Assembly (NCBI RefSeq): GCF_003334815.1
Contig: NZ_QOWO01000087.1
DNA: 2,241 bases
Reading direction: 5' to 3' (one strand)
DNA from: Escherichia coli
Lineage (GTDB): Bacteria > Pseudomonadota > Gammaproteobacteria > Enterobacterales > Enterobacteriaceae
Positions 237 through 2,241 of this stretch are shown here, in pieces (the first letter of the stretch is position 1; each line of letters begins with the position of its first letter). The notes below the pieces were generated by a model. It made no database searches. It had not been told where the DNA came from and saw only the letters and a list, made by a program, of their open reading frames with translations. The position numbers and the translations under genes are program-made.

Positions 237-764
237 TCAGAATGGCGCATCATCGTCGTAGCCATAAGGAGGTTCTGGCTGTTGTTGAGGCTGAGGCTCT
301 GGCTGCGCGGCCTTACGTCCACGGCCTTTCGTTTTCGCGCCACCTTTTTTCGTCGCGTCAGCACTCTGTGGCTGCCCATTCTGCTGAGGCTTCGGTTGCG
401 CCTGAGCGTTCTGCTGTGGTGCACGTCCCAGCATCTGCACGGTGCCCGTGGTCTTAACAAGAATTTCAGTGACGTAACGGGTGATACCGTTATCTTCCCA
501 GCTACGGGTGCGAAGCTGACCTTCGATGTAGACCTGCGCACCCTTGCGCAGATATTCACCTGCCACTTCCGCGAGCTTGCCGAACAGCACCACGCGGTGC
601 CATTCCGTCTGCTCCCGCATCTCCCCCGTCTGTTTGTCACGCCAGCTTTCTGATGTGGCCACCTGCAGGTTTGCCACTGCGCCCCCGTTGGGGATGTAAC
701 GGACTTCCGGATCATTGCCCAGACGCCCGACGAGGATGACCTTGTTGATACCACGTGCACTCAT
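237..764 (-). CDS. ssb: Single-stranded DNA-binding protein, plasmid-type SSB (175 aa)
   Basis: The translation matches the E. coli SSB OB-fold block nearly residue for residue as I recall it ([81 protein letters not shown]), followed by a Gln/Pro/Gly-rich disordered linker and the acidic C-terminal tip DDDAPF (E. coli: DDDIPF). AGGAGG (complement of 770-775) sits 5 nt upstream of the ATG at 764. Stop TGA is the complement of 237-239. Confidence 0.95.
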
Positions 765-769
765 AAGAA

Positions 770-775
770 CCTCCT
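770..775 (-). promoter_or_regulatory. Shine-Dalgarno sequence of ssb (AGGAGG, 5-nt spacer)
   Basis: The minus strand reads CAGTCAGGAGGTTCTT-ATG. Confidence 0.85.
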
Positions 776-833
776 GACTGAAAGATGTGAGATAAACCGG
801 ATACCGGCGACGGGACGTTCATGTGCCCCTTCA

Positions 834-851
834 GAGGAGCGAAAGCTCCTC
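834..851. other. Hairpin with 7-bp stem and GAAA tetraloop (GAGGAGC-gaaa-GCTCCTC)
   Basis: Perfect complementarity 834-840/845-851 with loop 841-844. On the plus strand the loop is a GNRA-type sequence. Confidence 0.6.
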
Positions 852-856
852 CTGCC

Positions 857-890
857 GTCCACTTCACAGGGGTTTCTCCCCGCAGTGGAC
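857..890. other. Imperfect two-part hairpin (outer stem 857-863/884-890, inner stem GGGG 869-872 / CCCC 878-881, loop tttct)
   Basis: GTCCACT...AGTGGAC outer arms are perfectly complementary (7 bp); the inner GGGG/CCCC stem is separated from it by an internal loop. Confidence 0.5.
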
Positions 891-922
891 CTTTCCGATG
901 GGGGCCCGTTTACCGCCTCACG

Positions 923-934
923 GGACAGCTGTCC
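923..934. repeat. 12-bp perfect palindrome GGACAGCTGTCC (contains CAGCTG)
   Basis: The sequence equals its own reverse complement. A second CAGCTG-centred palindrome, GCAGCTGC, occurs at 1270-1277. Confidence 0.7.
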
Positions 935-939
935 GGGGG

Positions 940-987
940 CGGACGCAAAATTTTTAGCCGGGTTCATGGCTAAAAATTTTGTGGCCG
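940..987. repeat. Perfect 14-bp AT-rich inverted repeat (946-959 / 968-981) with 8-nt spacer, extendable imperfectly to 940-987
   Basis: CAAAATTTTTAGCC-gggttcat-GGCTAAAAATTTTG: every one of 14 positions pairs. Flanking 940-945/982-987 add four Watson-Crick pairs with one G-T and one mismatch. It is the only AT-rich perfect hairpin in an otherwise GC-rich region. Confidence 0.85.
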
Positions 988-1092
988 GTGCATCTCACCC
1001 TGGACAGATGGAACGGGAGGGGGTTACGTCTGCCCCCCGGAAAGTCCACAGCGGGAAACAGGCCGCAGGGGTGGCGGCAGGAGGGAAGACTG

Positions 1093-1134
1093 CTGCGCCA
1101 TCAGGCGCAGTTTCCTCACACACCGTCAGGTGTG
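1093..1134. other. Two adjacent tetraloop hairpins (CTGCGCC-atca-GGCGCAG at 1093-1110; CACACC-gtca-GGTGTG at 1119-1134)
   Basis: Perfect 7-bp and 6-bp stems confirmed by base pairing, separated by 8 nt. Confidence 0.6.
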
Positions 1135-1150
1135 CAGGGAGCGCAGGTCA

Positions 1151-1185
1151 CGGCGCGACAGGGGCGGCGCGACCGGAACGGTCGC
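1151..1185. repeat. Direct repeat CGGCGCGAC x2 (1151-1159, 1165-1173); the second copy overlaps a hairpin GCGACC-ggaac-GGTCGC (1169-1185)
   Basis: Exact 9-bp direct repeat with 5-bp spacer, read directly. The hairpin has a 6-bp perfect stem. Confidence 0.6.
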
Positions 1186-1358
1186 TGCAAGCCGGGTTTT
1201 CACGCATCGGACCGTAGCGGCAGCCCGAAACCGCGCCAGCGGGTTCGGCGGAGACTGGCGGGTGCGCCAGCAGCTGCCTGTCGGAGTCGGGCCTGACGAC
1301 CGGATGCCGCCAGGCAGCCGGGAGCCGAAGTGGGCGCAATAAAAGACAGCCAGAAACG

Positions 1359-1371
1359 GTGACAGTGTCAC
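1359..1371. repeat. 13-bp palindrome GTGACA-g-TGTCAC; candidate operator for a dimeric DNA-binding protein
   Basis: Six-bp arms are perfectly complementary around a central G. It lies in the only AT-richer patch (about 1331-1410) of the intergenic region. The operator role is inference. Confidence 0.45.
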
Positions 1372-1373
1372 GG

Positions 1374-1382
1374 AATATCACA
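1374..1382 (-). promoter_or_regulatory. Possible extended -10 element (TGtGATATT on the minus strand) for conventional transcription toward ssb
   Basis: Minus strand reads TG-t-GATATT. The hexamer keeps the A at -11 and T at -7 but has G at -12, and there is no good -35. A start site about 7 nt downstream would fall inside the 1359-1371 palindrome. Weak, by-eye call. Confidence 0.2.
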
Positions 1383-1434
1383 CCTGTTCCCTGCATACAG
1401 CCATACACTACCTTCTGACCGGAAAGCCGGGCCG

Positions 1435-1453
1435 GCAGCGCCGCAGGCGCTGC
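1435..1453. other. Hairpin with 8-bp GC stem and 3-nt loop (GCAGCGCC-gca-GGCGCTGC)
   Basis: Perfect pairing 1435-1442/1446-1453. Confidence 0.6.
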
Positions 1454-1466
1454 ACCCCGCATTTCC

Positions 1467-1525
1467 GGCAGGCGTCAGCCTGCCAGGGGTTTTCGCGCGG
1501 GCTGACAGGCGGCCTCCACCGCCTG
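1467..1525. other. Two GC-rich hairpins in the 3' untranslated region of the 63-aa ORF (1467-1484 GGCAGGC-gtca-GCCTGCC; 1506-1525 CAGGCGG-cctcca-CCGCCTG), the second nested inside CAGGGG (1484-1489) / CCCCTG (1526-1531)
   Basis: Perfect 7-bp stems confirmed by pairing. Neither is followed by a U-tract on the minus-strand RNA, so an intrinsic terminator is not supported. Confidence 0.5.
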
Positions 1526-1533
1526 CCCCTGTA

Positions 1534-1725
1534 TCACCTGTTTCTGCTGCCCTGAAGGATGTAGTGACCGCCGAGGAATACAGCCTGCTGATTCGCCACA
1601 AAATCGCAGATTTCATCAACAATCTGCGCAGTGGTGAGCGGTTTCTGCCCCATTTCACGACGCCGCGCATTAATCACGGCTTTGTAATTGCGCAGAATTT
1701 CGCGGGTTTCTGTGCTGATATTCAT
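1534..1725 (-). CDS. Small hypothetical protein (63 aa, mildly basic), translationally coupled to the upstream 140-aa ORF
   Basis: The ATG (complement of 1723-1725) overlaps the upstream stop TGA (complement of 1722-1724) in an ATGA arrangement. GGGGAG lies 8 nt upstream of the ATG. Composition is ordinary. It may belong to a small leading-region protein family (DUF905-like is a recollection of typical plasmid annotations, unverified). The competing track ORF 1368-1670 is GC-artefact-like. Confidence 0.6.
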   Translation of the reverse strand: MNISTETREILRNYKAVINARRREMGQKPLTTAQIVDEICDFVANQQAVFLGGHYILQGSRNR

Positions 1726-2144
1726 GACATGTGCTCCCCGTCCAGCGCCTGTAACACAACGTCCATTGCTTCGCGTTCTTCCCTGACGAATGCGTCACCG
1801 TCGCCCCCGTTCTCGCTCCCGACGGCATACAGGCGCTTCATTTCACTGCCTGCCAGCGCCATCACTTTTTCCAGCATCACCGCCGGAACTGTCACCTGAC
1901 GGCTGGCGCGCTTTTCTTCCATCAGCTCACGAACAACGTCGTGAACAATGCTGACATCCGCACCATGCTCAAAGGCATCGTCCAGTCGCTGCATGACGGT
2001 TTCCAGCTCATCGTCTGTCAGACTCCAGTCCTGGGCTATGTGACGCACATCCCCACGGGTCAGCACCACGGCAAAAACGCATTCACTGTCCGGCACGTCT
2101 GTGTTCAGCACTTCGCGGATAATTTCTTTAACAGTACAGTACAT
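1722..2144 (-). CDS. Hypothetical strongly acidic protein (140 aa; about 30 Asp+Glu vs 14 Lys+Arg by my count), leading-region gene of unknown function
   Basis: Long clean ORF with AAGGAG (complement of 2153-2158) 8 nt upstream of the ATG at 2144. Same orientation as ssb. Family not recognised with certainty (DUF1380-like is a recollection, unverified). Confidence 0.75.
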   Translation of the reverse strand: MYCTVKEIIREVLNTDVPDSECVFAVVLTRGDVRHIAQDWSLTDDELETVMQRLDDAFEHGADVSIVHDVVRELMEEKRASRQVTVPAVMLEKVMALAGSEMKRLYAVGSENGGDGDAFVREEREAMDVVLQALDGEHMS

Positions 2145-2152
2145 GTTCTCGT

Positions 2153-2158
2153 CTCCTT
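2153..2158 (-). promoter_or_regulatory. Shine-Dalgarno sequence (AAGGAG) of the 140-aa ORF
   Basis: Minus strand reads AAGGAGACGAGAAC-ATG, an 8-nt spacer. Confidence 0.8.
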
Positions 2159-2162
2159 TACA

Positions 2163-2181
2163 GGGGCGGCATTGCCGCCCC
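2163..2181. other. Intercistronic GC hairpin (8-bp stem GGGGCGGC / GCCGCCCC, 3-nt loop) just upstream of the 140-aa ORF ribosome-binding site
   Basis: Perfect pairing 2163-2170/2174-2181. On the minus-strand RNA it is followed by UGUAAAGGAG, not a U-tract. Confidence 0.6.
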
Positions 2182-2190
2182 GTCCGTTAA

Positions 2191-2241
2191 TCAGTCCAGT
2201 GCCGCGTAAATCGCGTTGCATTCGGGGTGAAATTCGATGTG
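2191..2241 (-). CDS. Possible 3' end of an upstream minus-strand gene (fragment only)
   Basis: One minus-strand frame is open from the window edge to a TGA at 2191-2193 (...HIEFHPECNAIYAALD*). A second frame is open to a TAA at 2188-2190 and the third frame is also open, so the true frame cannot be decided from about 50 nt. Supported only by the downstream hairpin and the operon-like context. Confidence 0.25.
   Translation of the reverse strand, partial: HIEFHPECNAIYAALD

Follow-up and report, generated by a model that had tools for sequence, protein, structure and literature searches.

What are two small open reading frames (ORFs) doing just upstream of ssb on an Escherichia coli plasmid contig, and do they belong together? 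We asked this of a 2,241-bp stretch of NZ_QOWO01000087.1 (the window), which encodes a 140-aa protein (p140) followed immediately by a 63-aa protein (p63). A first-pass annotation, made from the sequence alone, had described the two as a translationally coupled pair and a candidate uncharacterised leading-region module, in which p140 could be a DNA mimic or other anti-defence factor and p63 its partner. We found that the genes for p140 and p63 come second and third in the klcA/ardB anti-restriction operon of the IncI/IncF-type leading region. They form the tail of that operon as two independent accessory genes, and they are not an obligate pair.

IncI-gamma/K1-type conjugative plasmids from E. 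coli and Salmonella match the window at 100% identity, and PLSDB has at least 5,000 matching records. We used one annotated record, NZ_CP024481.1 (L001), as the reference; it is also 100% identical, and the window corresponds to its positions 12001-14241. All of the window genes are on the minus strand there, and the genes for an antirestriction protein (KlcA/ArdB), a DUF1380 family protein and a hypothetical protein are contiguous on that one strand. The end of klcA/ardB, directly upstream of the pair, had been overlooked in the first-pass annotation. The full coding sequence is L001 14191-14616, or 2191-2616 in window coordinates, with the remainder outside the window, and its product matches a PHROG anti-restriction family (E 1.9e-19). 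The same arrangement is found in pESBL (NC_018659.1), which is nearly identical to the window plasmid, with klcA at 57371-57796, Hp12 at 57843-58265 and Hp13 at 58262-58453. In R64-style names the three genes are yfeB (ArdB/KlcA), yfeC (p140) and yffA (p63). p140 is therefore also known as YfeC (R64), YubJ (F), YcjA, YcgC and Hp12 (pESBL), and p63 as YffA and Hp13 (pESBL), the last of which has the same protein accession as p63. Experimental work on ArdB was done with R64 yfeB (PMC10149784).

Much of what had been noticed about the two ORFs held up. The TGA of p140 overlaps the ATG of p63 (ATGA, junction 1725-1722), both ORFs have good ribosome-binding sites (Table 1), and ssb does lie downstream on the same strand, after about 770 nt of non-coding DNA. 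The net charge of p140 is indeed -16 (14 D, 16 E, 4 K, 10 R; pI 4.45), and p63 is basic (net +3, pI 9.6). With tblastn and BLASTP we found homologues that are 33-68% identical and arranged in this order in plasmids of Salmonella, Enterobacter and Pectobacterium and in metagenomic contigs. Because homologues in other genera keep the gene order, p140 and p63 are, as judged by these comparisons, real genes and not chance ORFs. Their spacing varies in relatives: the two genes overlap by 11 nt in L012 and are separated by 13 nt in L015 and by 49 nt in L013. An overlap of 4 nt is nothing unusual for operon genes, and relatives do not keep it.

We next looked at gene neighborhoods, drawing on 11 look-ups by protein and on 3 annotated regions from PLSDB. 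Ten contexts had sequence upstream of a p140-like gene (the window, L003/4, L005/6, L008, L009, L012, L013, L014, L015/16 and L021). All ten have KlcA/ArdB (PF03230) upstream, directly adjacent in eight. An additional DUF1380 copy sits between klcA and p140 in L012 and L015, giving tandem DUF1380-type genes between klcA and p63 (Pectobacterium L012 3015-3864, Salmonella L015 2111-2987); the extra copy is less acidic, with a net charge of -8 in L012 and -6 in L015. p63 follows p140 in six architectures: the window, L005/6, L012, L013, L014 (where it has a premature stop) and L015/16. L003/4 has p140 without p63. In L019/20 p63 comes directly after KlcA and in L017/18 directly after ArdA (PF07275), with no remnant of p140 in either case.

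Since each gene occurs without the other in natural loci, there is no obligate p140-p63 pair, and the proposal that p63 is the partner of p140 in a two-gene module is not supported. In the contexts sampled, the constant neighbor of p140 is KlcA/ArdB and not p63. For its part, p63 closes the anti-restriction operon that precedes the ssb promoter, be this operon of the KlcA or the ArdA type.

The same observations bear on a possible toxin-antitoxin or addiction function, in which a small basic protein would be translationally coupled to an acidic neutraliser. The sizes, the opposite charges and the ATGA overlap would fit, and toxin-antitoxin genes are enriched in leading regions (PMC11541004). 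However, transposon-insertion sequencing (TnSeq) of pESBL found that insertions in Hp12 and Hp13 are tolerated; both genes, along with KlcA/ArdB, ArdA and PsiB, were scored as non-essential for maintenance and transfer with a probability of 1.00 (PMC4288162). In addition, p63 occurs naturally without p140 (L017-L020) and p140 without p63 (L003/4), L014 has a truncated p63 beside an intact p140, and neither protein matches a toxin or antitoxin in PADLOC, Pfam or NCBIfam. TnSeq dispensability and the natural occurrence of each gene alone contradict a toxin-antitoxin pair, and we regard this explanation as largely refuted and extremely unlikely. We conclude that p140 and p63 are neither an obligate complex nor a toxin-antitoxin pair.

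The locus is a classical leading region in which the transferred strand is the template for the genes. To the left of the window in L001 are psiB, psiA and ardA and then the nikA/oriT side, and in both L001 and L011 a single strand carries every gene from the methylase through ardA, pointing toward nikA/oriT (the oriT coordinates of pESBL are given in PMC4288162). The description of p140 and p63 as uncharacterised leading-region genes was correct; the two-gene module is not supported, as the genes are separable. Both families had been catalogued before, which the first-pass annotation had missed. Samuel et al. (Nature 2024) list YffA in their supplement as family 6 with 4,048 members and YfeC/YubJ/YcjA as family 14 with 3,145 members, both as 'Uncharacterized' and both at a median ORF position of 15 from oriT; KlcA is family 9, at position 16. 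All three are enriched in leading regions and in T-strand orientation, and the YffA and YfeC families are among the 100 largest that are enriched there (PMC11541004). Because the two families are annotated and listed among the largest uncharacterised leading-region families, the finding of these genes is not new. In the literature we found DUF1380 only in passing mentions in unrelated papers, and yfeC and yffA only in plasmid annotation lists.

What kind of protein is p140? It has a weak, partial match to Pfam PF07128 (DUF1380; i-E 1.9e-4, residues 1-99), a membership that had also been overlooked. It matches PHROG 9024 (function unknown) with an E-value of 1.4e-5, and NCBI labels the protein identical to p140 as a DUF1380 family protein. 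BLASTP aligns p140 with the canonical DUF1380 protein of the same plasmid (L001 15850-16284) at 31% identity over 111 aa (E 6e-9). A joint profile of p140 and canonical DUF1380 retrieves both subfamilies, and the p140 family profile retrieved 252 cluster representatives out of 1.84 billion at E <= 0.001, many of them fragments. The full-length alignment of p140 and DUF1380 proteins has a common hydrophobic core and an R82-x-V-T-V-P-A motif. All 16 of its full-length members are acidic, and seven acidic columns are conserved across the family. The p140-like subfamily (33-47% identity) has a net charge of -13 to -16, versus -6 to -11 for canonical DUF1380.

Like p140, the proteins of DUF1380 (PF07128, PHROG 9024; YubF/YfcB/YcgB of F, R64 and related plasmids) have about 136-144 aa, are acidic and have an MY(G/C)T N-terminus. 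The two differ in the C-terminal half, where p140 has GGGD and canonical DUF1380 has a WKREWAARD motif. They also differ in their surroundings: p140, which is the more acidic, follows KlcA/ArdB, whereas canonical DUF1380 consistently follows an N6_N4 methylase and YubE. The N6_N4 DNA methylase, YubE (PF27407, about 73 aa) and canonical DUF1380 form a second conserved triad, at L001 15850-17203, which we also saw in L003, L014, L017, L019, L022, L023 and L024. The methylase of this triad in pESBL is M.EcoGIX, another anti-restriction device. Each DUF1380 paralogue is attached to a different anti-restriction device, one to the methylase and one to KlcA.

To see how fast p140 changes, we compared klcA, p140 and p63 with the window proteins at six loci that have all three. 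In five of these loci p140 has diverged furthest; at the Salmonella locus, for example, identity to the window proteins is 47% for p140, 74% for KlcA and 65% for p63. The exception is Pectobacterium L012, where klcA (36%) is slightly more divergent than p140 (38%). Judged from these alignments, p140 is a divergent, fast-evolving and consistently acidic DUF1380 paralogue, and p63 is the better conserved of the two.

The AlphaFold2 (AF2) model of p140 has six helices, with a predicted local distance difference test score (pLDDT) of 80.6. Foldseek searches of AFDB50 with this model returned DUF1380 models at 22-44% identity, with E-values from 1e-5 to 6e-10 and TM of about 0.6-0.78, and the predicted fold is common to p140 and the DUF1380 AlphaFold models. 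Nearly all of the matches at E <= 0.001 are DUF1380 proteins or unnamed plasmid ORFs (ranks 2, 12 and 17 are named otherwise), and none of the matches at that threshold belongs to a functionally characterised family. As modeled, the helical fold of p140 has no match outside the DUF1380 family. We did not count the histone-fold, TetR and MazE rows in the fold searches as evidence. Searches of solved structures by sequence gave only chance-level matches for p140 and p63, and NCBIfam, PADLOC and Rfam had nothing for p140, p63 or the window apart from the match of ssb to NF010292.

These results bear directly on the proposal that p140 is an anti-restriction or anti-defence DNA mimic of the ArdA/Ocr kind, with p63 as its physical partner. 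The strong, conserved acidity of p140, with its seven retained acidic columns, speaks for mimicry, as does its place in a leading region within an anti-restriction operon. Its rapid divergence is compatible with an arms race, and the window plasmid has the pairing of an acidic with a basic protein and the ATGA junction. p140 is also like ArdA and Ocr in being small, acidic, probably early-expressed, encoded in the leading region and non-essential for transfer in laboratory matings. However, we found no similarity of p140 to ArdA (PF07275) or Ocr in sequence or predicted fold, and in the fold searches its predicted fold matches none of the known mimic folds. The first reading had already noted that p140 does not resemble ArdA, PsiB or KlcA, and in our searches neither p140 nor p63 resembles them. 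The charge density of p140 is -0.114 per residue, which is high and conserved in the subfamily but lower than that of the ArdA of L017 (-0.151). A physical partnership is further weakened by the occurrence of each gene without the other and by a coupling that is not conserved. In addition, tblastn found no match to p140 or p63 in 50,697 phage records. We consider DNA mimicry with p63 as partner improbable.

p63 is harder to place. Its homologues are 41-68% identical, and its AF2 model (pLDDT 80.1) has helices at residues 5-24 and 32-61, so it is predicted to be a helical hairpin. It has no match in Pfam, NCBIfam, PHROG, PADLOC or PDB; its best Pfam score, to DUF7420 with an E-value of 0.029, is below threshold. 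Cys40 is the only invariant cysteine in the alignment of the family. Salmonella- and Enterobacter-type proteins have two further cysteines and His54 (e.g. C40, C45, C47, H54). We had considered a conserved zinc or metal site and dropped it, because the p63 of the window has only C40 and H54 and such a site is not a conserved feature of the family. We also dropped a terminator-like hairpin within the p63 ORF (1605-1628), as the number of such sites is the same as in shuffled sequences.

Two of the p63 homologues deserve a separate mention. On an IncFIB plasmid of Enterobacter asburiae (L014 3962-4138), the p63 homologue has a premature stop and is annotated with 45 aa; similarity runs on beyond the stop, and the p140 beside it is intact. 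The truncation may reflect a pseudogene or an error in sequencing. A JGI metagenome contig (L017 2458-3717) encodes, in this order, ArdA, a p63 homologue, a DNA polymerase III theta homologue, SSB, DUF905 and ParB. The theta homologue has 122 aa and matches NF008207 with an E-value of 7e-23, under the curated cut-off.

Could p63, p140 or both regulate expression in the leading region, for example by tuning read-through into the ssb unit or by shutting off the ssDNA (single-stranded DNA) promoters? p63 is small and basic and is the last cistron before a structured promoter region, we found no intrinsic terminator after it, and one metagenome source labels extended p63 homologues as MBF1-type, with a helix-turn-helix (HTH). 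Set against this, we found no HTH or ribbon-helix-helix (RHH) signature in p63 in Pfam, NCBIfam or PDB, and the model is a plain two-helix hairpin. We think that a regulatory role is very unlikely.

When are these proteins made? A study of pESBL describes RNA-seq of fresh transconjugants in which six leading-region operons, including the klcA operon, are strongly induced (PMC12672017). According to that study, start sites found by rapid amplification of cDNA ends (5' RACE) point to single-stranded-DNA hairpin promoters; class 1 promoters (ssi1-3/Frpo) were mapped in this way, the klcA and ardA promoters are assigned to a new 'class 2', and F shows induction of the same operons. It also describes that the operon is transcribed in the recipient minutes after DNA entry and that transcription fades once the complementary strand is made (PMC12672017). 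Our own folds agree with structured single strands at these places. The transferred strand upstream of klcA folds as ssDNA with a z-score of -4.9 versus shuffles, and the spacer at 765-1140 (+) folds on the transferred strand at -106 kcal/mol (z -8.5). From the gene order of pESBL, we read the 765-1533 spacer as holding the Frpo/ssi-type ssDNA promoter region that serves ssb. We found no sigma-70-like promoter in the window.

The preceding methylase-YubE-DUF1380-YfdA unit ends at L001 14990-15027 (-) in a canonical intrinsic terminator, which reads GGCGGGGAAAATCCCCGCC and then TTTTT on the coding strand. This terminator lies just short of the structured region upstream of klcA, and its position supports the view that the two units are transcribed separately. 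Within the operon there is a GC-rich hairpin of 8 bp, GGGGCGGC-AAU-GCCGCCCC, between the klcA stop and the ribosome-binding site of p140. It has no U-tract. The RNA fold of 2142-2195 (-) is at -19.8 kcal/mol (z -3.55), and none of 200 shuffles was equally stable. The hairpin, as read from the sequence, may serve processing, stabilisation or attenuation. The klcA-p63 gap in L019 also has a hairpin, followed there by TTTT.

The explanation that we favor is that both are small binding proteins of the establishment phase, with p140 linked in function either to antirestriction of the KlcA type or to some other DNA-binding target in the host; we think it about evenly poised between right and wrong. 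In this explanation, a class 2 hairpin promoter on the incoming single strand would drive transcription of the klcA operon, from which p140 and p63 would be made. Both would be non-enzymatic, would bind other proteins or nucleic acids, and would act during establishment only. p140 may be an accessory or range-extending factor for KlcA/ArdB antirestriction. Alternatively, it may act as a decoy that occupies another DNA-binding protein of the host, from a defence system or the nucleoid. p63 would be an independent helical-hairpin protein that was appended to a KlcA- or ArdA-type operon before ssb.

Several points weigh against this explanation. Our sample of contexts is small and was not systematically drawn. 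KlcA occurs without p140 and without p63 in L023/24, and the KlcA of IncP and IncN plasmids is not known to be accompanied by either gene. Induction of yfeC and yffA themselves is inferred from that of the klcA operon, which is described at the level of the operon. The lack of phage matches would be unusual for broad anti-defence, and conjugation-specific establishment fits it at least as well. KlcA/ArdB shares its operon, promoter and timing with p140, but the two are not homologous and ArdB acts in vivo without p140. When R64 yfeB was cloned alone, ArdB gave antirestriction in vivo and only partial antirestriction in vitro (PMC10149784), and since yfeB alone suffices in vivo, p140 is not required for ArdB antirestriction.

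The investigators of the ArdB mechanism suspect a missing 'third player' (PMC10149784). A bolder reading is that p140 is this 'third player' of KlcA/ArdB or a new-fold inhibitor of a host target other than Type I restriction-modification (R-M), that the paralogues are matched to their devices and that p63 is portable. We consider this fairly unlikely. If it were true, KlcA/ArdB would need p140 for full activity, or p140 would be an acidic inhibitor of a new fold whose target in the host is a nucleoid protein or a defence other than Type I R-M. The DUF1380 paralogues would be matched one each to the ssDNA methylase and to KlcA, and p63 would be a portable add-on that works with ArdA- or ArdB-type operons.

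The strongest competitor to consider is a role in establishment that is not defence, either in processing of the incoming strand (SSB or primosome handling, complementary-strand synthesis) or in transient reprogramming of the host. The leading-region ParB-like protein HerB/YfjB transiently reprogrammes host physiology, which is a precedent for such leading-region functions (PMC13370423). p63 is always immediately before the block of ssDNA promoter and ssb, the theta homologue comes after p63 in L017, the genes are on plasmids and not in the phage collection, and they are dispensable in laboratory matings. The DUF1380 paralogues, however, go with the methylase and KlcA and not with ssb or psiB, and scans with Pfam and NCBIfam recognised no nucleic-acid-binding or enzymatic domain in p140 or p63. 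We regard a non-defence role as doubtful. Like PsiB, DUF905/YubL, YubE and HerB/YfjB, several of which were long uncharacterised, p140 and p63 are templated by the T-strand, belong to an operon reported to be zygotically induced and are dispensable in the laboratory, but there is no homology between them. PsiB, which is a RecA inhibitor, and HerB have assigned functions, unlike p140 and p63.

The features of the window are collected in Table 1. Beyond ssb, the annotation of L001 places the start of a DUF905 gene at the left edge of the window. RefSeq has a 104-aa hypothetical ORF within the spacer, at 1148-1462 (-) or L001 13148-13462, which is probably spurious and lies in GC-rich structured DNA. 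Further to the left, an IS21-family element, ISEc12 (istA/istB), is found at L001 8932-11234 between the DUF905 gene and psiB. At this position pESBL and pS13 have a ParB-like gene of about 1.96 kb (yfhA, HerB/YfjB type). Because ISEc12 occupies its place, the host-reprogramming HerB/YfjB-type gene appears to have been lost or disrupted in the L001 plasmid.

Table 1. Positions of the features in and around the klcA operon tail (window coordinates).
Feature	Position	Strand	Basis and remarks
klcA/ardB (R64 yfeB) 3' end, last codons and stop	2191..2241	-	Annotation; PF03230; first gene of the operon
Predicted hairpin between klcA and p140	2163..2181	-	RNA fold
p140 Shine-Dalgarno AAGGAGA	2152..2158	-	Sequence; 7 nt before ATG
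p140 ORF, 140 aa	1722..2144	-	ORF list; annotated 'DUF1380 family protein'
p63 Shine-Dalgarno-like GGGGAG	1734..1739	-	Sequence; within the end of the p140 coding sequence; 8 nt before ATG
p63 ORF, 63 aa	1534..1725	-	ORF list; annotated as hypothetical; last gene of the operon
Non-coding spacer with putative Frpo/ssi-type ssDNA promoter region	765..1533	+	ssDNA fold; downstream limit of the klcA operon
ssb, plasmid	237..764	-	NCBIfam NF010292, 368 bits (cut-off 265); annotation; next transcription unit

What this analysis contributes is anatomy rather than function. It adds the linkage of p140 to KlcA in the contexts examined, the parallel between methylase-linked and KlcA-linked DUF1380 proteins, and a p63 that is portable between operons of the ArdA and ArdB types. 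The genes are common. A match to the 611-bp segment at >= 80% DNA identity was found in 3,509 of the 5,426 complete E. coli genomes, so roughly two in three of these genomes have p140 and p63 on plasmids; of the segment's 4,930 places, 4,868 are plasmid-borne. The klcA operon is among the earliest plasmid transcription units to be switched on after conjugative entry. Should either protein help incoming resistance plasmids to escape host defences or to become established in a new host, it would offer a target for blocking plasmid spread that is both widespread and conserved, and it could also bear on the mechanism of ArdB/KlcA.

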